In this document: positions 5,346-55,290 of the stretch, one piece after another | Layout of the letters: each line of letters opens with the position of its first letter | Position numbering within the stretch: position 1 is the first letter of the stretch | Assembly: GCA_964624115.1 (NCBI GenBank) | Contig: CAZUXI010000006.1 | Coordinates: forward strand, 1,060-65,059 | Length of the DNA: 64,000 bases | Source of the DNA: an uncultured Candidatus Peribacteria bacterium | GTDB lineage: Bacteria > Patescibacteriota > Gracilibacteria > UBA1369 | Reading direction: 5' to 3' | The notes under the pieces: model-generated | The model's database searches: none | Told to the model about the DNA's origin: nothing | What the model saw: the letters and a program-made list of their open reading frames with translations, nothing else | Program-made: the position numbers and the translations under genes

Positions 5346-5398
5346 TGGCAAAAATCTTACGCTTATTTTAAACGCAAACATTGGATCCTCCAAGGTCT
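5346..5398 (+). repeat. Bipartite intergenic repeat copy (box A TGGCAAAAA, 27 nt, box B TGGATCCTCCAAGGTCT)
   Basis: Lies in the 67-nt gap between the stop of the 200-aa ORFan and the purD start. Matches the two-box consensus found at 6 other loci. Confidence 0.55.
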
Positions 5399-5402
5399 TT
5401 CG

Positions 5403-6005
5403 TCACTCCAAAACACCTTCCTCGTTGGAGAGTGCGGTTTCATGCATTAACCCAATCACCGTTTGCAGCCACTGACACAGTCCTTCCAGTTTTTCCTTAT
5501 ATTGCTCTTTGTATCCTTGCAGCGAGGCAAGGTGATGAAAACGATTACCAAATTTTTCAGCTTCTTTTCGAAGATCATGATCAGCAAAGAGCAAGTGAAC
5601 ATTGGGTTCGTAACCATCACGACTCATGATCCCCTGTTGAAGAAGTCGCAAATAAATCTGAATCTTTTGTAAAAAAGTATCAAAATCATCTTCAGTCTCA
5701 ATCTTTCGATACATTGGGGTAAGGTCAATACGGAGTCGTTGTGCCGTTTCAAAGAGTTGAAATAAAGTATTTCGTTGAGAATAATCGGAAAAACCGGTCG
5801 TTACGATCCGTTCAACTTCAGAAGCCGCGGGCGACATTTGAATAATTTCTGTTGTACCAACCGTTTTTCTTGAAATCGACTTCCTTATTCCGGTAATAAA
5901 ATCACGACACTTTTGTTCCTCATCAGGTGTTTGGACAGGAAGAATGTCAGCTTCACGAAAAAACTCATGGCTTCTTCCGTCGTTATCAAGAGGAATCTGC
6001 CCCAT
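5403..6005 (-). CDS. Hypothetical protein (200 aa), no recognisable motif
   Basis: Long ORF with an ATG start, co-oriented between purF and purD. Composition is protein-like. Confidence 0.6.
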   Translation of the reverse strand: MGQIPLDNDGRSHEFFREADILPVQTPDEEQKCRDFITGIRKSISRKTVGTTEIIQMSPAASEVERIVTTGFSDYSQRNTLFQLFETAQRLRIDLTPMYRKIETEDDFDTFLQKIQIYLRLLQQGIMSRDGYEPNVHLLFADHDLRKEAEKFGNRFHHLASLQGYKEQYKEKLEGLCQWLQTVIGLMHETALSNEEGVLE

Positions 6006-6089
6006 CGCGTGAGGTTATGAAATAAGGATTACTTAATAACACCCTTAAATCTTCAAGTCAAATTCATTCGCGATGAAGAGCACAACTCC

Positions 6090-7349
6090 TTAGTCTTTCT
6101 TTGGGACTTCGAGGGCAGCAACCGTATAGCTCGTGAAGAGTGGTTCATTATTTCGAGTCTGTTCAAGTCCACGCTGATGTTCTAAGAGTCCTTCAGCTTG
6201 GTGTTGAAGGGAAGTTTCCGAAACCAACACATATGTTCCAACATAACGCTGAAACCGTTCGTTAAAATCAAAATGAGGTTCATGAACTTTTTCTCCGAGC
6301 TCCTCACGGAATTGAGTTTCTAAAATCTGACGACTGGATGCAGGCAAAACCATGACACGCGTACCCGGTTCAACGGGAATTTTATAAGGGGTATTAAAAG
6401 TTTCTTGAACAATGCGATCGTAAACTTCACGTCGTTTGGATTCGGGGACCTCTTTCCCGTCAATTTCTCCGTAAGCATCGGCGAGTGTGTCAACATATTT
6501 CCGCTGCCAGTTGATGACATTTCCGTCAGCATCAATAACCAGAACTAAATTTGCTTGTTTCCCACGTTGAACAATCTCCAAAACATTATCTTTACTTAAG
6601 CGTACAAACGAAACAGAAATAGGTGCAGTTTCACGCAATCCCAACTGGTCATTTTCATGAAGTACCAAGCCCAATTGCAGTAAATCTTCGATGATTTCTT
6701 CAACCCGCATCCGGTTTTCTTTGGGAGCACGTCCAACGAGCAAATCATGCGCGGCGCTTACGGCAGAAAGTTTAGCGACCTCAATGTCAGCAGGAAAGTC
6801 GCCGGATGTATGACAAAGAACGAGGGTCATTTCCCCATTATGTGAATCATCATACATAACCGCACTTTCACGTGGAGTAGGGATATGAGTTGACTGAGCT
6901 TTTCCACGTGGGGATGGGAGTCCACTGTAGATGAGAGCGTTTCCTTCAGGACTCTGGACTTCAGCACGAACCAATGAACTATCAGGGGTTACTGTACTCC
7001 GACCACCGATCAAAGTGAGTCCTAAAGGTAACCTTCGGCGTTGTTTATCCAAAATCCCTCGCAAAAGCTCTTCTGCGGAAAAGAGTGTACTATCCTGAAA
7101 TTCTTGTCCTTCAAGCAGTCTTCGAATTTCCGTTACCACGCCTTCGGGAGATTTTGCCTTCGGAAGCTCAGCTGGTGGTTGTAAGTTTTCTAAGCGGACA
7201 TGTTCTAACCAAGTCTGAAAACTGTCACCATTTCGAACCATTGAATGTGGAGCAAGACTGGTGGGAACTGCATTCTCAGCACTTGCCTCTTCAGGCGCTG
7301 GAAGGTTTTGTCCATTATCTTCGTCAGGAACACGAGCAGTATTATTCAT
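6090..7349 (-). CDS. Hypothetical protein (419 aa from ATG 7349), no recognisable motif
   Basis: The long ORF is 6090..7442. The first ATG is at 7349 (MNNTARV...); upstream codons are AT-rich and I/F-rich, so probably non-coding. Confidence 0.6.
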   Translation of the reverse strand: MNNTARVPDEDNGQNLPAPEEASAENAVPTSLAPHSMVRNGDSFQTWLEHVRLENLQPPAELPKAKSPEGVVTEIRRLLEGQEFQDSTLFSAEELLRGILDKQRRRLPLGLTLIGGRSTVTPDSSLVRAEVQSPEGNALIYSGLPSPRGKAQSTHIPTPRESAVMYDDSHNGEMTLVLCHTSGDFPADIEVAKLSAVSAAHDLLVGRAPKENRMRVEEIIEDLLQLGLVLHENDQLGLRETAPISVSFVRLSKDNVLEIVQRGKQANLVLVIDADGNVINWQRKYVDTLADAYGEIDGKEVPESKRREVYDRIVQETFNTPYKIPVEPGTRVMVLPASSRQILETQFREELGEKVHEPHFDFNERFQRYVGTYVLVSETSLQHQAEGLLEHQRGLEQTRNNEPLFTSYTVAALEVPKKD

Positions 7350-7541
7350 AATTTTTGGGTCAAATCTAATTATTATATCATGAAATTGACATATATCAAT
7401 CAATATTGAGGAATGCCAAAAGTGATCAACCAGTATAACCAAATATACGATGGTGTATTACAAAATAATGACAAAAGAATTACAAAAACAAAAACACCAT
7501 GAAGACCGAAATCCTCATCAGGATACTAAATAAGGGATGAT

Positions 7542-9053
7542 TCAAATGAACGGAAGTTGTTCATCTTTTCCCCGTTCATCGTTCTCAGTATCATAAATTT
7601 CCGACCGGTGGGGAAGCACATTTCGATCAATTTCCGCTTTTTGTAACATCTCTTCAGTAATATCTTTAGTCGGATATTTCCCTCCCATACAAGCATAACA
7701 GTAATTGGTGACATCCGGATTCCCCTTAATCGCACTTTCCAATAAATCCTCAATTTTTTGATAAAAAAGCATATCGGCACCAATTTCTTGAGCAATCTCT
7801 TCCGTAGTTGCATCATTCGCCACAAAATCTTTGCGAGAAGGCATATCAACACCATAAACGCACGGATTGATGAGCGGAGGTGCGCATGAAGCAAAGAAAA
7901 CCTTTTTCGCTCCTGCTGCTCTCACCATCTCAATGATTTTTTTGGAAGTATTTCCTCGGACAATCGAATCATCAACGAGCAAAACATTACGATCCTGTAA
8001 TTCGAGTTTAATCGGGTTCAATTTATAATGAATCGACTTTTTCCGAATCTCTTGTCCGGGCATAATAAACGTACGCCCAATATAACGATTCTTAATCAAA
8101 CCTTCACGGTAGCGAATGCCCAATTCTTGAGCCAAAGTAAGTGCTGAACTGCGAGCAGAATCAGGAACAGGTACCACGACATCAATATCTAAATTGGCGG
8201 CTTTAATCTGCTGGGCGAGGGAAGTCCCCATGCGCATTCTGGCCTTATAAACACTCACCTTATCAATAATCGAATCCGGACGCGCAAGATACACATGCTC
8301 AAAAATGCACGGAGCCCAATTCTTTTTCACCACCTGTTTCCGAAACACCTGACGTTGCATATCAATAAATACCGCTTCTCCCGGCTGAATGTCATCCACC
8401 ATTTCAAACCCTAAAGTGTCCAACGCCACACTCTCAGAAGCAAAGGCATACTCAGGCATTAAGCCAGGTTCTCGTTTTCCGTAACAAAGTGGACGAATGC
8501 CCAACGGGTCACGGAAAGCCAATAATCCATAATTGGCAATCATGACAATGACCGAATAACTCCCTTTTAAACGTCTGAAAACACCTTCCATGGCTTTGAA
8601 CAAAAGCTCTGGGGTGAGCGTACTTTCTTTAAGATCCAGCATCTCATTGGCAACCACATTCAACAACAATTCTGAATCCGATTTTGTATTTAAATGACGA
8701 TTATTCACCGAGGTAACCTCTTTTTTTAAATCATCATAGTTCGTGAGATTCCCATTATGAATTAAAGAGATCCCAAAAGGGGAGTTCACATAAAACGGTT
8801 GTGCTTCCGCAGCATCATAACAACCGGCAGTCGGATACCGCACATGGCCAATACCCATATTCCCTTTTAATCGCACCATGTTTTTCGTATGAAAGACATC
8901 CCGAACAAGCCCATTCCCTTTTTTTAGATGGAAATGATCATCAAACGTCATAATCCCCGCACTATCTTGCCCTCGATGCTGGAGCACCACTAACCCGTCA
9001 TACAATTCCTGTGAAACCGGCTGGTTTGCCATGATGCCAATAATCCCACACAT
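7542..9053 (-). CDS. purF: Amidophosphoribosyltransferase
   Basis: MCGIIGI N-terminal nucleophile start, followed by a PRTase motif (VLLVDDSIVRGNTS). Confidence 0.9.
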   Translation of the reverse strand: MCGIIGIMANQPVSQELYDGLVVLQHRGQDSAGIMTFDDHFHLKKGNGLVRDVFHTKNMVRLKGNMGIGHVRYPTAGCYDAAEAQPFYVNSPFGISLIHNGNLTNYDDLKKEVTSVNNRHLNTKSDSELLLNVVANEMLDLKESTLTPELLFKAMEGVFRRLKGSYSVIVMIANYGLLAFRDPLGIRPLCYGKREPGLMPEYAFASESVALDTLGFEMVDDIQPGEAVFIDMQRQVFRKQVVKKNWAPCIFEHVYLARPDSIIDKVSVYKARMRMGTSLAQQIKAANLDIDVVVPVPDSARSSALTLAQELGIRYREGLIKNRYIGRTFIMPGQEIRKKSIHYKLNPIKLELQDRNVLLVDDSIVRGNTSKKIIEMVRAAGAKKVFFASCAPPLINPCVYGVDMPSRKDFVANDATTEEIAQEIGADMLFYQKIEDLLESAIKGNPDVTNYCYACMGGKYPTKDITEEMLQKAEIDRNVLPHRSEIYDTENDERGKDEQLPFI

Positions 9054-9092
9054 ACGAGAAAAAATAAGGAAAAATAAAAGAGGGCGTCAATT

Positions 9093-9950
9093 TTATGTCA
9101 TGATTATACCTTTTTTTGCAACTTTCACCACATTTTCCATCAAGCACGCGACTGTCATAAGGCCACACCCCCCAGGTACCGGAGTAATATACGAACTTTT
9201 CTGAGAAACATGATCAAAATCCACATCACCAACAATTTTTTCGTCCACACGGTTAATCCCCACATCAATGACAACGGCGCCTTCGGTTACCATATCAGCA
9301 GTAATAAATCCGGGTCTCCCCACCGCCACAATCAAAATTTCGGCTCGTAAACATTCCGCCTTCAAATCCACCGTTTTACTATGGCATACCGTCACCGTTG
9401 CCTTCCGATTGGTCAACATCACTGCAAGCGGTTTCCCCACAATATTACTCGATCCCACCACCGTCACCCGTTTCCCCACCACGTCAATTCCATAATGTTC
9501 AAGCATCCGAATCACTCCCATCGGCGTACACGGCGTCAAATCTTCCTGCTCTTTCCCCAAAAACATTTGCCCTACCTGAAGCGCAGAAAACCCATCCACA
9601 TCTTTTTTCGGATCCACCAGCTGAACAATCTTTTCACTCTCAATCGAATCCGGAAGCGGAAGCTGCACCAAAATTCCATGAACATCTTTTTGCCCATTCA
9701 GTTCCACAATTTTTTTCGCCAAACCATCCGTATCAATCGTACCCTCTTCATAATGCAAAAACTCGGTTTTTACCCCAATCTTCTCGGCATTTTTTAACTT
9801 CGACCGAATATAAGAAAGCGAAGAAGGATGATTCCCCACCAGCACAATAACTAAAAAAGGAACAACGCCCTGGTCTTTGAGGCCATCCACCTCATTTTTT
9901 AAACGAGAATAGACCGCTTCACTTACCAGTTTACCATCAAGAAGTTGCAT
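9093..9950 (-). CDS. folD: Bifunctional methylenetetrahydrofolate dehydrogenase/cyclohydrolase
   Basis: 285-aa product with a FolD-typical layout (SxxYxxxK region, GILVQLPLP, VVGxSNIVGKP, TPVPGGxGxMT). Confidence 0.9.
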   Translation of the reverse strand: MQLLDGKLVSEAVYSRLKNEVDGLKDQGVVPFLVIVLVGNHPSSLSYIRSKLKNAEKIGVKTEFLHYEEGTIDTDGLAKKIVELNGQKDVHGILVQLPLPDSIESEKIVQLVDPKKDVDGFSALQVGQMFLGKEQEDLTPCTPMGVIRMLEHYGIDVVGKRVTVVGSSNIVGKPLAVMLTNRKATVTVCHSKTVDLKAECLRAEILIVAVGRPGFITADMVTEGAVVIDVGINRVDEKIVGDVDFDHVSQKSSYITPVPGGCGLMTVACLMENVVKVAKKGIIMT

Positions 9951-10018
9951 GGCTGAAAAGAAGAAAAAAGTAACTCAAAACTACCATAAACTTCGGGTGA
10001 AACAAATTAAAAAATTCA

Positions 10019-10068
10019 TGGCAAAAACGAACGTTGTTTCCAAAGCAAGCGTTGGAGCCTCCAATTCT
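10019..10068 (+). repeat. Bipartite intergenic repeat copy (TGGCAAAAA, 25 nt, TGGAGCCTCCAATTCT)
   Basis: Lies between the Tmk-like stop (10080) and the folD start (9950). Box B here sits inside a 13-nt palindrome, TTGGAGCCTCCAA. Confidence 0.6.
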
Positions 10069-10079
10069 AATAGTATTTC

Positions 10080-10676
10080 CTAAACTTTCCTCGTATCTAA
10101 AAATGCTTTCACCAATTTCCAAATCTTCTCATGCGTCTCCTCAATCGAAGTCGTATCCACTTTTCCCCAACCCAACTTCCCAGAAAAATCATGAAGAATT
10201 CCAGTCACTCGAGTAATCAAACCATTATTCTGTTCATGAATATGCTGTTTCTCCTGCGCTTCCGTAAAACGTTTTCCTTCAATAAGAATCGATAAATCTT
10301 CAACAAGTAATCCCTTATTCAATTCCAAAACCTCATCCAAACTCAACCCTTTCGCCATCCCCCAAGCCATTCCTGTACCAATATAATCTTCAGCAATCAC
10401 CACTTTCCCATCCATAATCATTTGCTGAAGCTGCGGTTCAAAATCCCGCCGATTCAGACAATAAAGTTCCTGCAATTCCAATTCCGAAATCTTCTGTACC
10501 TCTCCACCCCGTAAAATCCGATTCAATTCAGGCCCCGTCGGCTCCAAATCATAAATGGGATACTTCAAAAGCACCGCATCAAAACCTTCTCGCTGCAATC
10601 GTTCAACCAAAAGCTTCGCTTGTGTCGACTTCCCAATATTATTCACCCCATACAAAGCAATAAAAGCACCTTTCAT
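10080..10676 (-). CDS. Thymidylate-kinase-fold nucleotide kinase (Tmk-like)
   Basis: P-loop YGVNNIGKST at the N-terminus, about 200 aa, immediately downstream of dut. The exact substrate cannot be determined from sequence alone. Confidence 0.55.
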   Translation of the reverse strand: MKGAFIALYGVNNIGKSTQAKLLVERLQREGFDAVLLKYPIYDLEPTGPELNRILRGGEVQKISELELQELYCLNRRDFEPQLQQMIMDGKVVIAEDYIGTGMAWGMAKGLSLDEVLELNKGLLVEDLSILIEGKRFTEAQEKQHIHEQNNGLITRVTGILHDFSGKLGWGKVDTTSIEETHEKIWKLVKAFLDTRKV

Positions 10677-10684
10677 AAATTTTT

Positions 10685-11113
10685 TTAACCAGTACTCCCA
10701 AACCCCCCTCGCGAATCTTTCCTCACCAACTCTTCTTCCAGCAATTCAAACCGATCAATTTTCACAAACACCGCCTGCGCAATCCGATCCCCCCGTTTCA
10801 CCTCAACGGCCTCATCCGTAAAATTATAAACCTGAATCTTAATCTCATCTTCAGGTCCACAATAATCCTGATCAATAATCCCAATCCCATGGGGCGGTAT
10901 TAAACCCTTTTTCATCGGCGTCGAACTTCGGGAAGCGACCACCAGCATGTAACCTTCCGGCACCTCCACCACCAAATTCCCCGGCACCAAAACAATCTTC
11001 CCCGCTTCAATCACTGTATCCACCCGCGCAATCAAATCCAGCCCCACCGAACCCCGAGTTTCATACTTCGGAAGCGGTAAATCCTTATCAATCCGCTGAA
11101 CTTTAATTTTCAT
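10685..11113 (-). CDS. dut: dUTP diphosphatase
   Basis: GSVGLDL, GIIDQDYCG and a C-terminal RGGFGSTG motif; 142 aa. Confidence 0.9.
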   Translation of the reverse strand: MKIKVQRIDKDLPLPKYETRGSVGLDLIARVDTVIEAGKIVLVPGNLVVEVPEGYMLVVASRSSTPMKKGLIPPHGIGIIDQDYCGPEDEIKIQVYNFTDEAVEVKRGDRIAQAVFVKIDRFELLEEELVRKDSRGGFGSTG

Positions 11114-11219
11114 AAGAAGAAAAAACGTAAACAGCCGAAGTGTACAACCTTCAGTTTTTCGAGTAAAGTACCGTCAAGAAACGAACAGAAAAAATTCTCA
11201 AAAAAATTATTCACCTCGC

Positions 11220-12233
11220 ATGTCAGAAACCTTAAACACCCAAACCCTCCCCAAAATCGACTTCGCCGTCGGCGGCCAAGCCCTCATCGAAGGCGTTATG
11301 ATGCGCTCCCCAAACTTCATCACCGCGGCCGTCCGCAAAACCAGCGGCGATCTCACGATCAAAAAAGACCCCTTCAAATCAATCGGAGTTCGCTTCCGTT
11401 TCCTTGGAGTTCCCTTTGTCCGAGGAGTCGTGAACCTTTTTGAAATGATGATCATCGGCATGAAAATGCTCAACTTTTCTGCAACAGTCCAACTCGACGA
11501 AACCCCAGCCGAAACCATCAACACCAAAACCGAAACCGACACTACCCCAAAAATCTCCAAAACCGAACAAATCATCACCACCGCATCTTTTGTATTTTCC
11601 ATTGTTTTTGCCCTCGGCCTCAGCCTCTTCCTCTTCAAATTTCTCCCCCTCTGGATTACTGACCTCCTCAGCAAAAGCTCTACGGTCATTAAAGACAACT
11701 ACCTCGTGTACAACCTCATCGACGGCGGCATCAAAACCGTATTTTTTGTGACCTACATTGGCATTCTCGGTCTCACCCCAAGCCTCAAACGTGTTTTCCA
11801 ATACCACGGCGCTGAACACAAATCCATCTTTACCTACGAGCGCGGCCTCGAACTCACCCCAGAAAACGCCGCCAAACAAACCCGTTTCCACCCTCGCTGC
11901 GGCACCAGTTTCATCCTCGTCGTCTTCATGCTCAGTATTTTTATCTATACCTTCGTTCCAAGACACCCCGACTTTTATACCAACTTCGGCATCCGCGTCC
12001 TTTTCCTCCCCCTCATCGCCGGAATCTCCTACGAATTCCTCCGTTTCTCCGCCAAAAACCAACAAAACCGCTTGGTAAACCTTCTGACCCTCCCCGGGCT
12101 CATGTTCCAACGCCTCACCACCAAAGAACCCGACCACAGCCAACTCGAAGTCGCCCTCACCGCCCTCAAAGCCGCCCTCGAACTCGAACACCAACGAGTC
12201 CTCCAGCCACAAACAGTCCCCAACGTTCCCTAA
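11220..12233 (+). CDS. DUF1385-family (YqhQ-like) membrane-associated protein
   Basis: GGQALIEGVMMRSP near the N-terminus and the conserved YHGAEHK motif, with hydrophobic segments in between. Confidence 0.75.
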   Translation: MSETLNTQTLPKIDFAVGGQALIEGVMMRSPNFITAAVRKTSGDLTIKKDPFKSIGVRFRFLGVPFVRGVVNLFEMMIIGMKMLNFSATVQLDETPAETINTKTETDTTPKISKTEQIITTASFVFSIVFALGLSLFLFKFLPLWITDLLSKSSTVIKDNYLVYNLIDGGIKTVFFVTYIGILGLTPSLKRVFQYHGAEHKSIFTYERGLELTPENAAKQTRFHPRCGTSFILVVFMLSIFIYTFVPRHPDFYTNFGIRVLFLPLIAGISYEFLRFSAKNQQNRLVNLLTLPGLMFQRLTTKEPDHSQLEVALTALKAALELEHQRVLQPQTVPNVP

Positions 12234-12249
12234 AGAAACCAGCCCCACC

Positions 12250-12537
12250 ATGTCCGAACGCCTCAAACAAAACCTCCCCATCATCATAGCGGTGCTCATC
12301 AGCACCGCCGCCCTCATCTACTATCTCCAAAGTGGGGGACTGAGCTTCGACCAAAAAATCCAAGAACTCAAACAATCCCCAACCGTCGAAAACGTCAGCA
12401 TGGAGTCCAGAAACCGCATCACCATCAAATGCAAAAACGGCACCTCCTACGAACTCCTCTTCAAAAAAGACAACCCCAACTTCGAACAGCTCATCTTTAA
12501 CGCCTGTGGCGCAGAAGGAACTCAAGAATCTGAGTAA
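12250..12537 (+). CDS. Small N-terminally membrane-anchored hypothetical protein (95 aa)
   Basis: ATG lies 16 nt after the DUF1385 stop. One hydrophobic helix (LPIIIAVLISTAALIYYL). Confidence 0.55.
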   Translation: MSERLKQNLPIIIAVLISTAALIYYLQSGGLSFDQKIQELKQSPTVENVSMESRNRITIKCKNGTSYELLFKKDNPNFEQLIFNACGAEGTQESE

Positions 12538-12538
12538 T

Positions 12539-12591
12539 TGGGAGCAAAGATCGAAGATTATGAAAAGCGCTGTCGATGGATCTTCCAATCC
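12539..12591 (+). repeat. Bipartite intergenic repeat copy (GGGAGCAAAGA, 26 nt, TGGATCTTCCAATCC)
   Basis: Starts 2 nt after the stop at 12537 and lies directly to the left of GC-rich island 1. Confidence 0.55.
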
Positions 12592-12599
12592 GTTTATTA

Positions 12600-12628: not shown

Positions 12629-12828
12629 GCGCTCCACTCTCTCACGAGCGCCCTTTGAAAAACCAGAAAAGTCGAAGCCGGTAAAAATTTGTCCGTGCGA
12701 GAAAAGGTGTAAAAAAGCTCAGAGTAATCCGAGAAATTTTCCCTAATCGTGCCCGGACAGATGTCTTGCCGTGCTTCGCTTTACTAACATATTTTCACTC
12801 CAATGCGGCTTTGCCGCGAAAGGTTGTC

Positions 12829-14352
12829 ATGTCCACATCAAACCATGACCCACCCCCAGTGAAAACTGGGAAAGAGGTCGAGCCGCGCTTGGGCGCGGCC
12901 ACCTGGGAGGGGCGTAAAGCTCTCCTTGCTGAGGTACTTGAAGTGTACCCAGTAAAGAGCCTTTATCGCTTCTTGCTGCTTCACCTCCTTGCGCCTGAAA
13001 AGGCCAAGAGCCACGCTGAAGCGGCAGTGAGCGAAAAGAACCGCGATGAATACCCTCGCGGATACGACCTCGCAATCGCGCTCGACCGAATCGAGCAAAA
13101 CAAACGTCCCCGTTTCAACTGGGGCAACCGAAAGAGCGACTGGGACATCACCATTACGCTCCTTCTTCTCGAGCCGGGATCGTTCGTGGTTGAAGACCTA
13201 CTCGATGAAAACTCGAGGCAGTATTTCACGGTGCCGTTGCTGCTCAAGCTCTATCCTGAGCTCAAGCAGCGGGTACTCTTCCACCTCGCTCAGGCGAAGA
13301 GCGGAAGCTGGGAGCATCTCCTTGAGCTCCAAGGGATGGGGCACATCGGGCATGAAGACCTTAATTATGTGTACGAGAACCTACGCGCAGAGGGGAAATC
13401 TCGTCTCACACAACTCAAGCCCGACCACATCGGCAGCCTCGCCCGTCTCACGGGTAACACCGAACTGCTGGCCCTCTACCGGAGCAAAACCCCACTCTAC
13501 GAGCGTTTCCTCCAGGGAGATGTGACGAGTGACGAGCTCACCAAACTGCATGCCGATCTCCAAAAAGATCGCAACTGCCACGAGTGCAACCCCCGTGAAT
13601 TCTTCCGGGCCTGCGGGCAGGTCGTTCAGGTCAACCCTGAGGCAGTTACCAAGCTTATCGAGCTAGGAAAAAAACTCCTCGCGAGTGTAGAGCGCCTGCA
13701 AACTCAGCGGCAGGAAGTGCTGGAAGCGCTCGTAGGTCTCCATGGGAAGGTTGAAGACGAGGTGCTCGTTGGGGTAGTGGAGAATTTCCTCTACGTCCTC
13801 TACAAGACATCGAGCCTGGAGATAAACCTTCTCCCGCTCACGGCGTCTCAGCTTCACTTGCTCTGGGACGCTGCCCGTCGTACGGCCATGCACTGGTCCT
13901 GGCGTCGTGTTTGGCCTGAAACGGCTGAGCAAAAGAAACAATTCCAGAAGTGGGTAGCTCAACAGAGCCCCATCAAGGAACATGACGGCGAGTGGATCGT
14001 CCCGTGCGTCAGTGAGCAGCTCATTCATCTTGAGGAGCTCCAGCGGGCAACCCCTCCATTTCAAGTGCTCCTGGGACTGACGCACTTGTCCCATCCTGAG
14101 GTTCAAGCCTGGCTGCCAGCACAGCTGGACAAGCCCGCGGAACTCCAAACCTGCGGAGACACCAAGCTCCTGGATCTCCTTCGTCGATTTCCATCGCTCT
14201 TGATCAGCGTTTCAACTGCAGTCAAAACCCGTAATAAAAAACCGGGTAAGCGCCTCACGGACCTCATCAACAAGCTCGAATCCGAGTCAGCCGCCAAGCG
14301 TCCCGCAAGCAAGGTGCGAGGCGCGAAAAAGCCCCGAGCCAAGCGCAAGTGA
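12829..14352 (+). CDS. ORFan protein (507 aa from ATG 12829) in a GC-rich island, with a Lys/Arg-rich C-terminal tail
   Basis: It is the only long ORF in this segment. No motif is recognised. The tail is KRPASKVRGAKKPRAKRK. One hand-counted line (13021-13080) has 36/60 G+C, against 21/60 for line 14581-14640. Confidence 0.65.
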   Translation: MSTSNHDPPPVKTGKEVEPRLGAATWEGRKALLAEVLEVYPVKSLYRFLLLHLLAPEKAKSHAEAAVSEKNRDEYPRGYDLAIALDRIEQNKRPRFNWGNRKSDWDITITLLLLEPGSFVVEDLLDENSRQYFTVPLLLKLYPELKQRVLFHLAQAKSGSWEHLLELQGMGHIGHEDLNYVYENLRAEGKSRLTQLKPDHIGSLARLTGNTELLALYRSKTPLYERFLQGDVTSDELTKLHADLQKDRNCHECNPREFFRACGQVVQVNPEAVTKLIELGKKLLASVERLQTQRQEVLEALVGLHGKVEDEVLVGVVENFLYVLYKTSSLEINLLPLTASQLHLLWDAARRTAMHWSWRRVWPETAEQKKQFQKWVAQQSPIKEHDGEWIVPCVSEQLIHLEELQRATPPFQVLLGLTHLSHPEVQAWLPAQLDKPAELQTCGDTKLLDLLRRFPSLLISVSTAVKTRNKKPGKRLTDLINKLESESAAKRPASKVRGAKKPRAKRK

Positions 14353-14358
14353 ACCACA

Positions 14359-14450
14359 GCCGGAGTGAGACAATCTCACACGCCCTCACTCCGGCCCGAG
14401 CAGGCAAGACAAGACCTGACCCGCGGGAACGAAAGTTCTCGCGGGTTGTT
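14359..14450 (+). terminator. Two consecutive strong hairpins after the island-1 gene
   Basis: GCCGGAGTGAG (14359-14369) pairs perfectly with CTCACTCCGGC (14385-14395). CCCGCGGGAAC, a GAAA loop, and GTTCTCGCGGG span 14420-14445, followed by TTGTT. Confidence 0.55.
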
Positions 14451-14514
14451 CGCCATATACCAATTCACTCATCAAGAAAATTACAGTCTTTGGCGATTAA
14501 AATACTACGGCAAA

Positions 14515-14543
14515 TTGACAAAATATTAAAAATATTTTATTGT
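14515..14543 (+). promoter_or_regulatory. Candidate sigma70-type promoter (TTGACA, 17 nt, TATTGT)
   Basis: -35 at 14515-14520 and -10 at 14538-14543, 31 nt before ATG 14574. The spacer contains the inverted repeat AAAATATT/AATATTTT. Confidence 0.4.
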
Positions 14544-14573
14544 AAAGAGAGCATATCGTTACCTGAAGTAAAT

Positions 14574-14984
14574 ATGAGTATTCCAGAGATAAGAGAAGAT
14601 AATGATCGGTTGATTGCTCAACGTGATGAGAAATTAAATGTCAAAAAAAATTCTGAACAAGCAATAGAACTTCAACAAGCAAAAACTGCTCTTGAAATTT
14701 ATCTTCAAGAGCGCAATCCAACCTCAATACAAGAACTCAAAGACGCATTAAACGATTTTTCTGCAATAACAAAAGCAGTTTTTAGTGATCATGGGAAAGT
14801 GACTCAACAAAAACAGTTACCTGGTGATCCGATCAAGGTTTTTATTTTTCCGAAAAGTGATCACAAATCATCAGAGGTCGCAGTATTTATTTCCTATGAT
14901 TCTTTGGTAGGATTTAATATTCAGCTTTATTATAGAACCATGCTACCAAACGACACTGATACACCTTGGTATATGGTAGGTTAA
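14574..14984 (+). CDS. ORFan protein (136 aa), AT-rich
   Basis: The listed ORF is 14349..14984. The first ATG, at 14574, lies downstream of the promoter-like site. No motif is recognised. Confidence 0.5.
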   Translation: MSIPEIREDNDRLIAQRDEKLNVKKNSEQAIELQQAKTALEIYLQERNPTSIQELKDALNDFSAITKAVFSDHGKVTQQKQLPGDPIKVFIFPKSDHKSSEVAVFISYDSLVGFNIQLYYRTMLPNDTDTPWYMVG

Positions 14985-19855: not shown

Positions 19856-19879
19856 TTCTTCATTCACGAAGAAAAAATC

Positions 19880-19911
19880 AAGCCCTTCCTTTGTCGGAAG
19901 GGCTTTTTTTT
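19880..19911 (+). terminator. Intrinsic terminator
   Basis: A perfect 10-bp stem, AAGCCCTTCC/GGAAGGGCTT, with a 6-nt loop and a T-run. Confidence 0.85.
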
Positions 19912-19919
19912 GGTATAAT
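19911..19919 (+). promoter_or_regulatory. Candidate extended -10 promoter element (TGGTATAAT)
   Basis: TGnTATAAT sits 24 nt upstream of ATG 19943. Confidence 0.4.
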
Positions 19920-19942
19920 ATCTGGATTATCTCTCAACGCGA

Positions 19943-20974: not shown

Positions 20975-21016
20975 CATGGAAGCTCCAAAGAAAGCAGTTT
21001 TACGAAAAACGAACCT

Positions 21017-22123: not shown

Positions 22124-22148
22124 AGCAAGATAAATTGCACCCTTTTCC

Positions 22149-29702: not shown

Positions 29703-29733
29703 AGCCCCTTCTAACCGAAGGGGCTTTTTTTTT
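29703..29733 (+). terminator. Intrinsic terminator ending the 19943-29688 gene string
   Basis: 8-bp stem AGCCCCTT/AAGGGGCT, a 7-nt loop and a T9 run. Confidence 0.85.
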
Positions 29734-29784
29734 GCAAAAAACTAGGTGATCTTTGCCAGAGCAAACGGTGGAGCTTCCAATTCT
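29732..29784 (+). repeat. Bipartite intergenic repeat copy (TTGCAAAAA, 28 nt, TGGAGCTTCCAATTCT)
   Basis: Sits between the terminator and the promoter-like site of the next gene. Confidence 0.6.
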
Positions 29785-46135: not shown

Positions 46136-46210
46136 TGGCTGGGGATGAGGGATTCGAACCCCCGAATGTCGGCTTCAAAGGCCGATGCCTTACCGCTTGG
46201 CGAATCCCCA
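46136..46210 (-). tRNA. tRNA-Gln (anticodon TTG), CCA encoded
   Basis: The reverse complement folds as a cloverleaf. Acceptor stem TGGGGAT/ATCCCCA, D-arm GCCAAGCGGTAAGGC, anticodon stem TCGGC/GCCGA with loop CTTTGAA, T-arm GGGGGTTCGAATCCCTC, and a 3' GCCA. Confidence 0.9.
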
Positions 46211-46301: not shown

Positions 46302-46355
46302 AGATCTGGGAAGCTCCACCGCCCGCCTGTTCAACAATTCTCGATCTTTGCCAAA
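46302..46355 (-). repeat. Bipartite intergenic repeat copy (reverse orientation: TTGGCAAAGA, 26 nt, TGGAGCTTCCCAGATCT)
   Basis: Lies between tRNA-Gln and the SIMPL gene. Confidence 0.55.
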
Positions 46356-46475
46356 AAATAAATTGGCAATATGTCCATCATATCTCCTAAGCAGAAAACA
46401 AAAAAATGTAATACATTATCAAAGACCAAGTTTCACTAGATAGAAAATCATCTTACTTCTTAACTTCATAATTTT

Positions 46476-47210
46476 ATGAAAAGATTTTCATTGAAATCAG
46501 GGATCATTACATCTGCACTTACCATGGCAGTTGTTTTGGTACCAGCAACCACTCAGCTCGCTTTTGCTGCTGAACCAGTAACTCCAACCGTATCAGTTTC
46601 TGGCCAAGGCCATGTTATGGCAGCTCCGGACCGTGCGATGATGAGTGTCACCCTCGACTCAGCACAACAAAAAACTGCTGCTGAAGCGAAGAAAAAAGTA
46701 AACGACCAGCTCGCTACTTTGCAAAAAACTTTGAGTGCGTATGGTGTCACCAATAAAGACATTCAAACCACTTGGTACAGTGTCTACCCACAATACGACT
46801 ACTCTTATGCTGAGACAAAAGGTGAACCAGCAACACAAAAAATCATTGGTTACACCGCAAGCCGAAGCGTAACAGTTACATTGAAAGATGTGAAAAAAGT
46901 TTCTGAAGCTTTTGATAAACTCCTTGATGCCAACTTCAGCAACATTGGTGGAATTAACTACGATATCAAAGACAACAGTGCTTACATTGACAAAGCACGA
47001 GAAGCTGCAGTTAAAAATGCCGCTGATAAAGCCGGTAAACTCGCAAAACTCATGAACTTCAAACTTGGAAAAGTACAGAGTGTTTATGAAAACCAAAGTT
47101 ACAATGGATACTCTCCAATGTATAACAGCATGGGATACGGTAGTTCAATCGAACCAATGGATCTCGATGTAACTCTTGATCTCAACGTAACATACGAACT
47201 CGTTCAGTAA
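46476..47210 (+). CDS. SIMPL/DUF541-family secreted protein
   Basis: Signal peptide, then VSVSGQGHVMAAPDRAMMSVTL, typical of the family; 244 aa. Confidence 0.7.
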   Translation: MKRFSLKSGIITSALTMAVVLVPATTQLAFAAEPVTPTVSVSGQGHVMAAPDRAMMSVTLDSAQQKTAAEAKKKVNDQLATLQKTLSAYGVTNKDIQTTWYSVYPQYDYSYAETKGEPATQKIIGYTASRSVTVTLKDVKKVSEAFDKLLDANFSNIGGINYDIKDNSAYIDKAREAAVKNAADKAGKLAKLMNFKLGKVQSVYENQSYNGYSPMYNSMGYGSSIEPMDLDVTLDLNVTYELVQ

Positions 47211-51447: not shown

Positions 51448-52137
51448 ATGGCCGACCTCGAATCCTTTTCGTCAGCAGATAGTGGCGCTGAAGGATCCGA
51501 TCCCGCGGCCTTGGAACGCTTACGTGAACGCATGGCCAACGCCTCCGCGCAAATCAAAGCTATGCAAGTGGGGGAGCAAAAGCAACGAAAAAACGAAAGC
51601 GAACTCATCAAAATCCTTCTCAAATTCATCAAAAGCCGGCAAAAAGGTGACCAGCTTCTTCTGGTTGCCCGCCTTTTAGACGAAAACATCCCCGCAAACT
51701 TCATTGTGAGCCTTCTTGCCCTCTCCAATCACGAAATTAGAGAAGAACTGGGAATCAAACTGTTGCCTTCACTGGAACAGGAGCAGCAAATCGCCCTCGA
51801 TACCCGCAACCTGCCCGATATTCCCATTGGAGACGCCGTCCTTCCCCTCAAAATCAAAATTGCCCTCACTACCTGGTTTGAAGAGATCTACCGCCGCAGC
51901 TCCGAAGTCCCCGATCGCCTCCTCAAAACCATCTACGATGCTGATGGTGGTATGAAACTTGCGGCTGTTCAACTCGCCACCTTTAACCTCCGCGATTTTT
52001 TAGAGGAACAAAACGCCCCCCAAGACTACCAGGATATGAAAAATTTCCTGGAAGCCATTCTCCAAAGCATTCTTCAGCGCATCCACTACGAATTCGAAAG
52101 CCGAGGAAAACTTAAAGGCCCCCAGGAGCGAAATTAG
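51448..52137 (+). CDS. Hypothetical protein (229 aa)
   Basis: ORF starts 21 nt after rpmA. No motif recognised. Confidence 0.55.
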   Translation: MADLESFSSADSGAEGSDPAALERLRERMANASAQIKAMQVGEQKQRKNESELIKILLKFIKSRQKGDQLLLVARLLDENIPANFIVSLLALSNHEIREELGIKLLPSLEQEQQIALDTRNLPDIPIGDAVLPLKIKIALTTWFEEIYRRSSEVPDRLLKTIYDADGGMKLAAVQLATFNLRDFLEEQNAPQDYQDMKNFLEAILQSILQRIHYEFESRGKLKGPQERN

Positions 52138-52142
52138 TTTTA

Positions 52143-52193
52143 TGGCAAAAATCAAGCACTCTTTAAGATGCTTCCGATGGAGCCTCCAATTCG
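52143..52193 (+). repeat. Bipartite intergenic repeat copy (TGGCAAAAA, 26 nt, TGGAGCCTCCAATTCG)
   Basis: Starts 5 nt after the stop at 52137, between convergent genes. Confidence 0.6.
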
Positions 52194-52196: not shown

Positions 52197-52215
52197 AGCG
52201 TTAAAAACGCTTTTT
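52197..52215 (+). terminator. Small hairpin plus T-run
   Basis: AGCGTT, AAA loop, AACGCT, followed by TTTTT. Confidence 0.4.
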
Positions 52216-52435
52216 ACATTGCTTCCCTCAGCTTCTCAAAAATCTCCTCTTCCGGAAGCTCAATCCAGTGGTTTTTCACCAAAAGCTCACAAACCCGCTT
52301 CACCTTGGTCATACTCGGATGTTCAATTTTTACCAAAATCCGCTCAATTTTTTCCTCTTTTGCTTCATTCAAACCATTCTCCGCTCCAAAAATCACCAAA
52401 AACTCCCGCAACTTCTCCGGATCAATTTTGGTCAT
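52214..52435 (-). CDS. Small helical hypothetical protein (73 aa)
   Basis: ATG-initiated ORF downstream of tRNA-His on the same strand. Sequence is protein-like and charged/helical. Confidence 0.45.
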   Translation of the reverse strand: MTKIDPEKLREFLVIFGAENGLNEAKEEKIERILVKIEHPSMTKVKRVCELLVKNHWIELPEEEIFEKLREAM

Positions 52436-52588: not shown

Positions 52589-52661
52589 ACAAGGAAAGCC
52601 TCCATATTATAGAGAACTTTATCCTGAAGGCAAGCTTCTCTAAGAAGCCCCGGGAACAACG

Positions 52662-52784
52662 GTAAAGAATTCAAAAAGGGTCTATTGCAAGGAAGGAAAA
52701 AATTTCAACCGGAGTGTATTCAAATATACATGAGGCTTGAAATTTTTTCCTGACGCAGCAAGAGGCCCTTTTTCAATTCTTTAC
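52662..52784. repeat. 123-nt imperfect palindrome (long hairpin)
   Basis: The inner arms are a perfect 14 bp (GGAAAAAATTTCAA 52695-52708 / TTGAAATTTTTTCC 52737-52750). The outer arms match 21 of 24 positions (AAGAATTCAAAAAGGGTCTATTGC versus the reverse complement of GCAAGAGGCCCTTTTTCAATTCTT). Confidence 0.7.
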
Positions 52785-52785
52785 A

Positions 52786-52817
52786 ACCAAAAAGAGGCAG
52801 TGACTTGCACCGCCTCT
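52786..52817 (-). terminator. Intrinsic terminator of the metalloprotease gene
   Basis: On the minus strand: AGAGGC, a 13-nt loop, GCCTCT, followed by TTTTT. Confidence 0.6.
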
Positions 52818-54262: not shown

Positions 54263-54880
54263 CTACTTGGCGGCGCGTGAGACCGCGCCGCCGAAGATGA
54301 ACATGGTGAGAAGGATGAGGCCCATGGTCGCCCACGGTGCCTCGAGGAGGCCGTTGATCAGGCCTCCAATCGCCTTGATGATCAGGAAGCCGATCATCAA
54401 GATGTTGGGGATCGCCACGATGGCGATCTTACCTTCCTCCTCTTCACTGACTAGCCCCTTCAAGAAAAGCAAAGCTCCGGGGATTATATTGCAGAGGATG
54501 ACGGCCCAGGTGAGCCCCAGGTCGGGCGCCCTGAGGGTGGTGATGGCCAAGACGCCAAACCCCACAATGAGGGCCCCCTCGACCGGCTGCTCCGCCCGCC
54601 CAAAGAAGATGCCGGGGATCAAAAAAATGATCAAGAGTGGCACGCCTGCGATGAGACAGGCAACAATGAACCACGCTTGCGCGTAGCCCAACTGCTGTCC
54701 CACCTTGATCACATGGTGTTCGATCCTCCCTCCAGGGCTGGTGACAGGTGCCACCTCCCCGGTCCGTGTGGACCCGATCGGGTTGGGCGAATCGTGATAA
54801 TTCGCCCCACACCCCACCATCCCAAACAGTCCACAGACGACCAAAACAACAAAAACAAGTTTCTTGACGAGATTGGACAT
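54263..54880 (-). CDS. GC-rich ORFan: putative lipoprotein with several TM helices (205 aa from ATG 54880)
   Basis: AAGGAG lies 7 nt upstream of the ATG. Lipobox-like FGMVGC, then 4 or 5 hydrophobic helices. Line 54301-54360 has 37/60 G+C by hand count. Confidence 0.65.
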   Translation of the reverse strand: MSNLVKKLVFVVLVVCGLFGMVGCGANYHDSPNPIGSTRTGEVAPVTSPGGRIEHHVIKVGQQLGYAQAWFIVACLIAGVPLLIIFLIPGIFFGRAEQPVEGALIVGFGVLAITTLRAPDLGLTWAVILCNIIPGALLFLKGLVSEEEEGKIAIVAIPNILMIGFLIIKAIGGLINGLLEAPWATMGLILLTMFIFGGAVSRAAK

Positions 54881-54909
54881 GATGAGTCTCCTTTGTATCC
54901 TCAACCGTT

Positions 54910-54961
54910 GAGGACATTTCAAGCTACCTTTTACCATCAAAAGGCAATTTGAAATGTCCTC
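54910..54961 (-). promoter_or_regulatory. Strong hairpin in the 5' leader of the GC-rich gene
   Basis: Perfect 13-bp arms, GAGGACATTTCAA (54910-54922) / TTGAAATGTCCTC (54949-54961), plus an inner 6-bp stem CCTTTT/AAAAGG. An adjacent alternative stem CCTCAA/TTGAGG (54899-54913) shares nucleotides with it. Confidence 0.5.
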
Positions 54962-55167
54962 GTAATATATACCCATGAAACAGAGAATCGGTTTGTACTT
55001 GAGCAAATCTGGCTGGGAAATCCAGGAGAAATCTCAGGCACAAACCATTCTCTATTAAGATTTCAAAGAGCAAGAACCGAAATAGTACTATAATTTAAGA
55101 AAAAATCAAGTTTTTTGACCAAAAAGCTCGAGGGAAAGCAAAAAAAATAGCATCGGAAAATAACGAT

Positions 55168-55185
55168 AGAATTTGAAGCTTCCCA
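55168..55185 (-). repeat. Degenerate partial copy of box B of the bipartite repeat
   Basis: The reverse complement TGGGAAGCTTCAAATTCT resembles box B. No box A partner is found. Confidence 0.3.
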
Positions 55186-55237
55186 CTTCGCTCCTAAAAA
55201 TGGAGCTACGAGGGACGCAGCCACTTAAAAAAACGTT

Positions 55238-55290
55238 AGAATTAGAGGCTCCACCGGTTGCATTTTTTACAATGAAAGACCTTTGCCCAA
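55238..55290 (-). repeat. Bipartite intergenic repeat copy (reverse orientation: TTGGGCAAAGG, 26 nt, TGGAGCCTCTAATTCT)
   Basis: Starts 3 nt after the stop of the 824-aa gene (55294), upstream of GC-rich island 2 on the minus strand. Confidence 0.6.

Follow-up and report, generated by a model that had tools for sequence, protein, structure and literature searches.

Short intergenic repeats and recombination sites of several kinds have been described in bacteria. The REP/BIME sequences of proteobacteria are linked to RAYT transposases and are binding sites for gyrase and, in BIME-1, for IHF. Other small units are the bacterial MITEs (Correia/NEMIS, RUP, BOX) and the minimal elements derived from IS200/IS605 (PATEs, REPINs). 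Site-specific recombination takes place at integron attC sites, at pdif modules (XerC/D) and at the res sites of Sin/beta-type serine recombinases. The latter consist of protein-binding dyad subsites and an A/T-rich stretch open to a DNA-bending protein, with a total length of 60-90 bp. We analysed a stretch of 64 kb (here called the window) from an uncultured CPR bacterium, probably a member of the Peregrinibacteria, and found a genuine, lineage-specific repeat family that is dispersed over the intergenic regions. The element most likely belongs to a new family.

The window contains exactly seven full copies of the repeat (c1-c7, Table 1). In an nhmmer scan of the 64 kb, with an HMM built from the copies, these seven scored 40.7-53.3 bits and the next best match 8.3 bits, leaving a 'decayed copy' suspected earlier near 7413-7467 without support. 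The pattern GCAAA-N27-30-TGGAKCYTC matched seven times in the window, against 0.02 matches expected in shuffles; the two boxes thus co-occur beyond chance in this DNA. The box B 18-mer was found four times with up to 3 mismatches (0.07 expected), and the core TGGAGCYTCCA ten times at eight sites with up to 1 mismatch (1.8 expected in the window). All eight core sites are located in the intergenic DNA, which makes up 7% of the window and about 9% of which is occupied by the element. When box A was searched alone in the window, the number of matches was not significant. The density of the repeat is about one copy per 9 kb.

The coordinates and orientations listed for the seven copies in the first-pass annotation of this DNA were all confirmed, as was the strictly intergenic position of every copy. 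A supposed box B remnant at 55168-55185 proved to be part of a degenerate full-length tandem copy (c7'). This copy is made up of a T-run, TGGCTGCG, a 34-nt centre with a hairpin and the box B variant GTGGGAAGCTTCAAATTCTATCGTTATT, and 22 nt of it are 91% identical to the tail of the copy in strain contig L028 (see below).

Table 1. Positions of the repeat copies, partial copies and GC-rich islands in the window.
Feature	Position	Strand	HMM score (bits)	Description and setting
c1	5339..5397	+	40.7	takes up the gap (67 nt) from purD (4028-5335, -) to an ORFan (5403-6005, -)
c2	10010..10068	+	49.5	between tmk (10080-10676, -) and folD (9093-9950, -)
c3	12534..12592	+	48.1	begins at the stop codon of a conserved 95-aa gene (12250-12537, +); upstream of GC-rich island 1
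c4	29726..29784	+	46.7	directly after an intrinsic terminator; TTGACC-17-TAAAAT promoter of a 1475-aa ORFan (29880-34307, +) ~25 nt downstream
c5	46303..46361	-	53.1	divergent gap between tRNA-Gln (46136-46210, -) and a gene (46476-47210, +); sense to tRNA-Gln, 92 nt upstream
c6	52135..52193	+	52.8	76-nt gap between the convergent stop codons of a gene (51448-52137, +) and a 73-aa ORF (52214-52435, -); followed by a small hairpin (52198-52212)
c7	55238..55296	-	53.3	past the stop codon of a gene (55294-57768, -); upstream of GC-rich island 2
c7'	about 55159..55232	-		degenerate tandem copy, head to tail with c7
Solitary box B core TGGAGCTTCCA	20977..20987	-		42-nt gap between two T4SS-pilin genes
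GC-rich island 1	12766..14984	+		two ORFs (528 and 211 aa) without Pfam family
GC-rich island 2	54263..54880	-		205-aa membrane or lipoprotein gene

The unit is a discrete, asymmetric and continuous block with sharp edges. Counted from TGGA, its core runs from -43 to +15 (about 59 nt); the length is about 68 nt with the tail AATTCTAACGTTATT / TAACGTTATT, which is present in some copies only. The tail is preceded, in this order, by a T-run with box A (TTGGCAAARRTC, dyad TTTG-G-CAAA), an A/T-rich centre under loose constraint (ATTnTTnAAAA) and box B with its extension (GCaaaCGG-TGGAGCYTCCA-ATTCT). Both boxes are dyads, as had been reported. The pair identity was 0.75 in box B, 0.60 in the box B extension, 0.53 in box A and 0.44 in the centre; it was 0.24-0.30 in both flanks, at a background of 0.26. 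The centre had been described as a non-conserved spacer. However, its mean pair identity was reached by none of 2000 random sets, and T(-16), GC(-8,-7) and C(-3) are invariant (ungapped alignment anchored on TGGA). The picture of conserved boxes across an unconserved spacer was therefore overstated, because the whole 59 nt are homologous with graded conservation. The spacing, described as fixed, varies slightly; GCAAA and TGGA are 32-35 nt apart, with 33 nt as the value of four copies. The copy-versus-copy identity matrix is star-like (49-68%), which, together with the homology across the whole unit, indicates common descent and not independently evolved binding sites. Neither terminal inverted repeats beyond TTGG/CCAA nor target-site duplications were found at the copies.

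The orientation of the copies relative to the flanking genes is mixed, as noted before. With respect to co-directional flanking genes, c1 and c2 are antisense (each to both neighbours) and c3, c4 and c7 are sense. In agreement with the earlier count, the distance to a stop codon is at most 11 nt for five copies (c1 4, c2 11, c3 0-1, c6 5 and c7 3 nt). Lineage-specific ORFans are present on the box B side in 5 of the 7 cases, an excess that is not statistically significant (n=7). The GC-rich islands that c3 and c7 had been said to adjoin (12.7-14.5 kb and 54.0-54.9 kb) do lie next to these copies and are accessory DNA, island 1 on the box B side of c3 and island 2 on that of c7 and c7'. Unlike native genes, the gene of island 2 has AAGGAG 7 nt before its ATG; the Shine-Dalgarno sequence of island 1 is at most weak. 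The distance from the 95-aa gene to rplA is 2533 nt in the window versus 67-83 nt, with convergent neighbours, in the relatives L023 and L024. Compared with the relatives, island 1 is an insertion.

The element was not found in 54 kb from three syntenic relatives (protein identity about 55-90%), where the HMM gave nothing and no box B core was present. The tmk-folD gap measures 129 nt in the window; the orthologous gaps of L023 (49 nt) and L024 (121 nt) both lack the element. Both the tmk-folD and the purF-purD junctions differ across relatives. Among viral, GTDB-representative and JGI metagenome contigs, only single chance-level matches were obtained, with a scan pattern that fits just 2 of the 7 copies.

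Comparison with strain contigs revealed that the element is polymorphic between strains, with a breakpoint at its left edge. The one full strain breakpoint (n=1) was seen where a short metagenomic contig, L028, comes to its end; this contig is 99.6% identical to the window up to the left edge of c3. There are 6 mismatches in the 1563 nt up to 12532 and 64 in the next 90 nt. The homology ends at 12533, at most 1 nt from the left edge as defined by conservation. Past the break, L028 has a different repeat copy (31.5 bits, with the HMM built without this copy) and different downstream DNA; in the window, the GC-rich insertion is found at this same site (c3). In L032, the DNA upstream of tRNA-His is replaced and a half copy (box A and centre) is present. 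Copy c1 is identical in L001 and c6 is identical in L029, L030 and L032, while L031 ends within c6; these two copies are therefore stable where they can be compared.

We regard the repeat as a mobile or recombination element that is specific to the lineage, recognised by a protein and not autonomous, a reading to which we give a probability of roughly 45%. It is the most likely one in view of the absence of the element in the relatives, the lack of RNA structure and the break of L028 at the element. The first-pass annotation had likewise favoured recognition of the DNA by a protein, or a REP-like element, over a simple terminator. That interpretation, which we also infer, fits all findings. 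Its option of a recombinase site or REP-like element has gained support from the L028 break at c3 and the absence in syntenic relatives; nothing speaks in favour of a partition site.

We infer from the copies that a protein binds the element, that the element is mobile and which type of enzyme is involved, as follows. The element would act as double-stranded DNA, as suggested by the mixed orientation relative to transcription, the position of c6 between convergent stop codons and the lack of RNA structure. The dyad boxes, box B above all, may be the recognition sites of a sequence-specific protein. The likeliest candidate is a transposase or site-specific recombinase whose gene would lie elsewhere than on this contig; within the 64 kb, no gene for a transposase, a recombinase or a RAYT was found. 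This enzyme would insert or exchange the unit in gene-free gaps, alone or with cargo DNA on the box B side. If only units with intact boxes were propagated, the boxes would stay 55-75% identical while the centre drifts. The degenerate tandem copy c7' and the solitary box B core support this reading. The lack of such an enzyme gene in the window and of terminal inverted repeats and target-site duplications counts against it, and recent transposition is not indicated, since even the closest pair of copies is only 68% identical.

Alternatively, the copies could be bound by a protein of the host, such as a global regulator, a nucleoid-associated protein or one that acts as insulator or roadblock. 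They would then be selected at each locus and not mobile, in the form of a composite operator of two dyads with a bendable A/T-rich linker. The dyads in both boxes suit dimeric DNA-binding proteins, the A/T tracts of the left half are spaced in approximate phase with the helix, and a repeat that takes up this share of the intergenic DNA is easier to keep in a small compact genome if it is useful. Despite the age of the copies, the boxes have diverged much less than the centre, which is equally expected for host-selected binding sites, and the unchanged c1 and c6 in the strains compared also run counter to mobility. A break such as that in L028 is also possible by homologous replacement of a variable region that starts with a host binding site. 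However, the syntenic relatives have the same genes and gene order and lack the element, so there is no conserved regulon, and the neighbours share no function (purD, folD, tRNA-Gln, surface ORFans, convergent gap). The sharp edges, the homology of the centre, the tandem copy, the half copies and the non-orthologous copy in L028 look insertional. Stable host sites are therefore a rather unlikely explanation. Another one is suggested by the position of the two GC-rich islands, each immediately on the box B side of a copy in the same orientation. Here the unit would be a cassette-junction site that forms the 5' boundary of horizontally acquired cassettes at many intergenic positions and is served by a dedicated site-specific recombinase, similar in function to integron attC or pdif modules and unrelated in sequence. 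The exact L028 break with different DNA downstream, the clear Shine-Dalgarno sequence of the island 2 gene (at most a weak one in island 1), the insertion of island 1 relative to the relatives, the variable purF-purD and tmk-folD junctions and the head-to-tail pair of c7 and c7' would agree with this. It is nevertheless improbable, as c2 and c5 have nothing but conserved genes or a tRNA on their box B side, neither island is bounded by a second site at its far end, a recombinase gene is absent from the window, the ORFan excess is not significant with seven copies and the hallmarks of attC are missing.

It is very improbable that the unit works as transcribed RNA, be it a small RNA, a motif of the 5'- or 3'-UTR or a site at which RNA is bound by protein. 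The five copies that begin close to a stop codon would belong to mRNA, and a small variable hairpin is present just 5' of box B in c2, c4, c6, c7' and the L028 copy. However, the copies occur in both orientations relative to co-directional flanking genes, RNAalifold gave only the 4-bp box B dyad as consensus structure, with no covariation, and the fold z-scores of single copies were between -1.4 and +1.9 and averaged close to 0 (RNA of both strands, ssDNA of the forward strand). Box B with full 5-bp arms, in the TGGAGCCTCCA form, has a loop of only 1 nt, and Rfam yielded no match to the element even at E up to 5. It is also very improbable that the unit serves as a transcription terminator or as a promoter, be it for sigma-70 or for another sigma factor (sigma-54, for example). 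Box A does have a T-run and then TTGGCA, which matches TTGACA at 5 of 6 positions; in reverse orientation it is preceded, at 5 nt, by an aAnAAT hexamer. In addition, c3, c4 and c5 are sense and upstream of genes, and box B with its extension resembles the sigma-54 GG-N-GC on the reverse strand. However, there is no conserved -10 at 16-18 nt from TTGGCA and no -35 correctly spaced from aAnAAT, and in the copies counted GG and GC are offset by 13, versus 12 in sigma-54 promoters. Copy c6 has no gene start on either side, and c1, c2, c4 and c7 would produce antisense RNA in one reading or the other. Genuine promoters (T-run and TGnTATAAT) are found elsewhere and next to c3, c4 and c5. A G+C-rich stem with a T-run behind it is missing from the element, and canonical terminators occur separately from it. 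The earlier rejection of a simple terminator thus stands, and an RNA is disfavoured as well, given the lack of a fold and of an Rfam match, the mixed orientation and c6 in its convergent gap.

Compared with known systems, the element resembles REP/BIME in being short, dense, strictly extragenic, often just past stop codons, in either orientation, lineage-specific, clustered or in tandem, and with a role as DNA or protein-binding sites. Unlike REP, it has no stable imperfect palindrome and no GTAG/CTAC head, it is asymmetric with two different dyad boxes, and there is no RAYT gene in the window. With bacterial MITEs it shares small, non-coding, dispersed units with sharp edges in intergenic DNA only, presence/absence or replacement between strains, and ends better conserved than the interior. 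In addition, the right tail of c3 and of the L028 copy enters a -35-like hexamer (TTGACA and TTGCAA, respectively), which recalls the outward promoters of some MITEs. However, terminal inverted repeats beyond TTGG/CCAA and target-site duplications are missing, 59-68 nt is at the extreme low end of the size range, and we know of no parent IS.

Like integron attC and pdif sites, which are recombination sites of roughly 60 bp with conserved ends and a variable centre, the unit is found at boundaries of acquired genes near stop codons, and the site at one position varies by strain. It has no RYYYAAC / GTTRRRY boxes, attC-type hairpin or 11-6-11 Xer architecture, the copies are outside any cassette array and the window has no integrase. 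Res sites are one per replicon, versus about one copy of the element per 9 kb, they have no sequence similarity to it, and no recombinase gene is nearby; the two dyad subsites around an A/T-rich stretch are similar. The minimal elements derived from IS200/IS605 differ in that the dyads of the present element are only 4-5 bp, with no stable ssDNA fold predicted, no common target tetranucleotide 5' of the copies and no Y1 transposase gene in the window. They resemble it in their asymmetric ends free of terminal inverted repeats and target-site duplications, in a small dyad at each end (here TTTT-GGC-AAAA and TGGA-GCY-TCCA) and in head-to-tail neighbours.

The dispersed intergenic repeat is a real family, statistically solid and well delimited. 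An HMM trained on the seven full copies (c1 to c7) scored them at 40.7–53.3 bits. The best other match in 64 kb reached only 8.3 bits, which fixes the number of full copies in this stretch at exactly seven, and their coordinates and orientations agree with those of the first-pass annotation. Co-occurrence of the two boxes was compared with shuffled sequence, and the pattern GCAAA-N27-30-TGGAKCYTC gave 7 matches where 0.02 were expected. Box B alone is highly specific: its 18-mer, with at most 3 mismatches, matched 4 times (0.07 expected), and its 11-mer core, with at most 1 mismatch, gave 10 matches at 8 sites (1.8 expected). Box A alone was not significantly enriched in the window. All 8 box B sites fall in the approximately 7% of the window that is intergenic, which bears out the strictly intergenic position claimed earlier. 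In total the window holds seven full copies, one degenerate copy and one solitary box B, all intergenic, and about 9% of the intergenic DNA in the 64-kb stretch consists of this one repeat family.

The copies are spread over 50 kb in both orientations (see table). As had been noted from the sequence alone, five lie within 11 nt of a stop codon, and the orientation relative to flanking transcription is mixed.

Location and setting of the copies of the repeat and of the adjoining GC-rich islands
Feature	Coordinates	Strand	Setting	Remark
c1	5339..5397	+	between co-directional minus-strand genes	antisense to both
c2	10010..10068	+	between co-directional minus-strand genes	antisense to both
c3	12534..12592	+	between co-directional genes	sense orientation
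c4	29726..29784	+	between co-directional genes	sense orientation
c5	46303..46361	-	divergent gap	92 nt upstream of tRNA-Gln
c6	52135..52193	+	between two convergent stop codons	occupies most of 76-nt gap
c7	55238..55296	-	between co-directional genes	sense orientation
c7'	55159..55232	-		degenerate tandem copy
Solitary box B core	20977-20987		between two pilin genes	
Island 1	12766-14984		adjoins c3	ORFan-encoding; GC 0.50-0.55 for the islands vs 0.43 overall
Island 2	54263-54880		adjoins c7	ORFan-encoding; GC 0.50-0.55 for the islands vs 0.43 overall

The copies were aligned without gaps, anchored on the invariant TGGA of box B. The stretch between the boxes had been described as a non-conserved spacer; however, relative to TGGA the positions T(-16), GC(-8,-7) and C(-3) are invariant and a centre ATTnTTnAAAA is visible. 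Mean pair identity was 0.53 in the T-run, 0.53 in box A, 0.44 in the centre, 0.60 in the box B extension and 0.75 in box B, and dropped to 0.24–0.30 in both flanks (background 0.26). Of 2000 sets of seven 16-mers drawn at random from intergenic DNA, none reached the identity of the centre. Identity throughout the centre, together with the drop in the flanks, shows that the unit is a continuous block of ~59 nt with sharp edges and graded conservation. Its consensus ends are T-run-TTGGCAAA and TCCAATTCT(AACGTT), and the distance from GCAAA to TGGA is 32–35 nt (33 nt in four copies). The identity matrix between copies is star-like, with values of 49–68%. A further tail, AATTCTAACGTTATT, is common to c7, c7' and a copy in a contig from another strain (L028), and is partly present in c2 and c3. 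What had been taken for a box-B-only remnant at 55168-55185 is actually part of the degenerate full-length copy c7', which lies head to tail with c7; a decayed copy proposed near 7413 found no support in the HMM search. A CRISPR-like array was rejected for c7 and c7', as the units are only ~75% alike and differ by indels. A coding reading was also rejected, since spacer length differs by non-multiples of 3.

The window makes up nearly all of a 65.5-kb contig. For its thymidylate kinase the best homologues are 60% identical and, where named, belong to Candidatus Peregrinibacteria or the Patescibacteria group. The genes include purD, purF, folD, dut, tmk, rplA, rplK, nusG and T4SS-type pilins, and SLH and PKD surface proteins are encoded as well as many ORFans. 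No gene for a transposase, recombinase, integrase or RAYT (Y1 transposase) was found within the 64-kb window. A surface/pilus cluster (18599-34307) encodes an SLH protein, two T4SS-type pilins and then proteins of 1659, 814 and 1475 aa; its upstream regions share CAAGATAAATT after the -10, and it is syntenic with pilin-PKD clusters in relatives. Just before c4, a small ORF for a hydrophobic 34-aa product (29586-29690) separates the 814-aa PKD-domain gene from a strong intrinsic terminator. Native leaders are short and T/C-rich, with promoters of a T-run plus TGnTATAAT close to the ATG (e.g. upstream of 4028-5335, 7542-9053 and 36859-38025); Shine-Dalgarno sequences are lacking, an SD-like 4-mer occurring within 20 nt before the start in only 2 of 48 ORFs.

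Three relatives (L023, L024 and L025) keep the gene order secE-nusG-x-rplK-rplA, DUF1385 and dut-tmk-folD-purF ... purD, with ~55–90% protein identity to the window. Their 54 kb contain neither a copy of the element nor a box B core, and repeat finding yielded no comparable repeat of their own. The tmk-folD gap measures 49 or 121 nt in the relatives and 129 nt in the window. Absence from these syntenic relatives indicates a repeat family that is young relative to this lineage. Comparison of window 4028-11113 with L023-L025 showed that genes are inserted preferentially at the purF-purD and tmk-folD junctions across the bacterial family, which makes both of them hot spots. The purF-purD interval has no gene in L025, 3 in L024 and 2 in the window; the tmk-folD interval has none in L023 and L024 and 3 in L025, and in the window it contains c2 alone. 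A scan for the two-box pattern in IMG/VR, GTDB representative genomes and JGI metagenome contigs gave only single chance-level matches of at most 15 bits, and box B in viral contigs likewise gave chance matches only (at most 17 bits). The two-box scan did not recover the window's own contig, which places the source outside these collections. Of the 7 copies in the window, the two-box pattern fits no more than 2, and diverged families may therefore have escaped it. Literature searches turned up no account of a repeat of this kind in CPR bacteria.

Comparison with other strains proved the most informative. The species is present in JGI 3300045372, in runs SRR26721176, SRR17786453 and SRR13208889, and in ENA ERZ27258501 and ERZ27258528. 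In same-species contigs of 99.4–100% overall identity, from several public samples, c1 and c6 are identical. The JGI contig L028 shows 6 mismatches in 1563 nt to window 10970-12532 and, from 12533 on, 64 mismatches in 90 nt. The switch point is the last sense codon of a conserved 95-aa gene, at most 1 nt from the left edge of c3 as defined by conservation. Past the switch L028 has a different copy, in which the boxes follow the consensus, the centre is GC-rich and palindromic, and the tail is present; this copy scored 31.5 bits against an HMM built without it. The copies that the two strains have at this site are thus non-orthologous. After the site comes, in the window, the 2.2-kb GC-rich island 1, which compared with L023 and L024 is an insertion between the 95-aa gene and rplA, genes that lie 67–83 nt apart there. 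Island 2 lies on the box B side of c7 and c7'. Its gene has a clear Shine-Dalgarno sequence, AAGGAG, 7 nt before the ATG, unlike native genes, and therefore looks horizontally acquired.

A second contig, L032 (ENA ERZ27258501), diverges from the window directly upstream of tRNA-His (window 52592-52760; L032:1-158). Its replacement DNA contains a half copy (box A plus centre) that includes an exact 11-mer of box A and occurs in this one strain only; this DNA also carries its own promoter-like TATATC upstream of tRNA-His. Observations bearing on a possible insertion polymorphism are the absence from syntenic relatives, one locus with the copy exchanged and one half copy; no clean empty site was seen. 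The strain evidence consists of two contigs differing at or near the element. Further strain contigs examined were short and had no copy. In the 305-nt non-coding stretch from tRNA-His to a peptidase gene, a long inverted repeat AGGAAAAAATTTCAA ... TTGAAATTTTTTCCT with a loop of ~28 nt is present at window ~52690-52790, and L029:381-521 has 139 nt of unrelated sequence in place of the window's adjoining 53 nt (52730-52782). Contig L026 (run SRR26721176) is 96.4% identical at window 59936-60953, compared with 99.4–99.8% elsewhere for other contigs of the same run, which suggests either that this ORFan cluster diverges faster locally or that a second strain is present.

A function in RNA or transcription was considered from several sides. 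Only two tRNAs reached the Rfam gathering score, and at E values up to 5 no match overlapped a copy. RNAalifold recovered the dyad in box B (4 bp), as annotated before, on either strand, but no covariation. Folds of single copies, as RNA of both strands and as ssDNA of the forward strand, had z-scores near 0 (-1.4 to +1.9), and the only recurrent pairing in the copies is the box B dyad of 4–5 bp. When box A-box B pairing was compared by hand, changes between copies did not compensate. Several copies have a small hairpin directly 5' of box B; it is not counted as conserved structure because c1, c5 and c7 lack one. Promoters of the sigma-70, extended -10, Bacteroidetes-type -33/-7 and sigma-54 classes were rejected on spacing, unconserved hexamers and copy positions. 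For sigma-70, no conserved partner hexamer lies 16–18 nt from TTGGCA or the reverse-strand aAnAAT in either orientation. Sigma-54 promoters need a distance of exactly 12 nt from GG to GC (TGGCAC-N5-TTGC); in the copies counted it is 13 on the reverse strand, and on the forward strand no TTGC follows TGGCAA. In addition, c6 has no gene start beside it on either side, and for several copies the transcript would be antisense. Beside copies there are promoters of ordinary type (T-run plus TGnTATAAT, or TTGACx-16/17-TAnnnT). The view that the repeat is not a simple terminator held up, as the unit lacks a G+C-rich stem-loop plus T-run; canonical intrinsic terminators, separate from the unit, flank c4 and c6. 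Among known operators, PurR/PurBox (tried since c1 and c2 precede purD and folD), LexA and CIRCE matched single copies only in part and at chance level. Taken together, the RNA, promoter and terminator readings are improbable.

We favour the reading, with a probability of about 0.45, that the element is a lineage-specific, non-autonomous mobile or recombination unit. It would act as double-stranded DNA, and an enzyme encoded elsewhere in the genome would recognise its dyad boxes, chiefly box B. Such a unit explains why the edges are sharp, why homology runs through the centre and why the boxes are better kept. It also fits the absence from relatives, the existence of tandem and partial copies, a strain breakpoint that falls at the edge, and the association with foreign DNA. 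Against this reading, the copies have no inverted terminal repeats or target duplications, none is recent, no gene for such an enzyme was found in the window, and the single clean breakpoint lies where a short contig ends. In the main rival, the unit is bound by a host protein that organises the nucleoid, insulates or regulates. This would explain the conserved dyads and the stable copies but leaves the insertional features and the lack of a shared regulon unaccounted for; we consider it rather unlikely.

The mobile or recombination reading has a more specific version, a scattered cassette-junction site. The element would then be the recognition site of a new site-specific insertion system in CPR bacteria, each unit marking the 5' junction of a horizontally acquired cassette in an intergenic gap. 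Gene capture would be integron-like or pdif-like, but at sites dispersed along the chromosome whose sequence has no relation to attC or dif. On their box B side, 5 of the 7 copies have lineage-specific ORFans, which at n=7 is a trend only; a search for an inverted box where island 1 ends on its far side gave only a chance-level box A-like 11-mer. We regard this version as unlikely.

CPR bacteria (Patescibacteria) have tiny, compact genomes in which repeats and mobile DNA are generally said to be scarce, and to our knowledge repeat families have rarely been described in them. Here the element stands at the boundary of strain-specific, compositionally foreign genes. If it is a handle for mobility or recombination, it would show how uncultured, host-dependent bacteria gain accessory genes, and would provide a simple sequence marker for such junctions and a way to the responsible enzyme. 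If it is a host binding site, it would be among the very few global DNA-binding specificities known in the CPR radiation. At present the finding is descriptive, with seven window copies and two contigs from other strains, and support for a mechanism is thin. The family coincides with a strain-level junction of accessory DNA.

Among known systems, REP/BIME sequences share with the element the many extragenic copies. However, the element lacks a 20–40 nt imperfect palindrome forming a stable hairpin, and the GTAG/CTAC tetranucleotide is absent from its consensus; without stable palindrome and GTAG head it is not a REP. Its ends share only TTGG/CCAA (5 of 12 positions match when compared ungapped) and no direct repeats indicative of target-site duplication flank any copy, so that, lacking terminal inverted repeats and target duplication, it is not a MITE either. 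The integron core sites RYYYAAC ... GTTRRRY are absent from the ends, minimum-free-energy folds as ssDNA leave the ends unpaired except weakly in c3, and there is no cassette array next to intI; having neither R''/R' boxes nor an attC hairpin, the element is not attC. IS200/IS605-derived elements (PATE) resemble it in their asymmetric ends without inverted repeats or target duplications, but the ends of the element are dyads of 4–5 bp, each with a 3-nt centre, too weak and short to call hairpins. Like REP/BIME sequences and bacterial MITEs it is small, dense, extragenic, near stop codons, found in either orientation and lineage-specific, and we therefore file it as a small dispersed bacterial repeat that is not a member of any named family.
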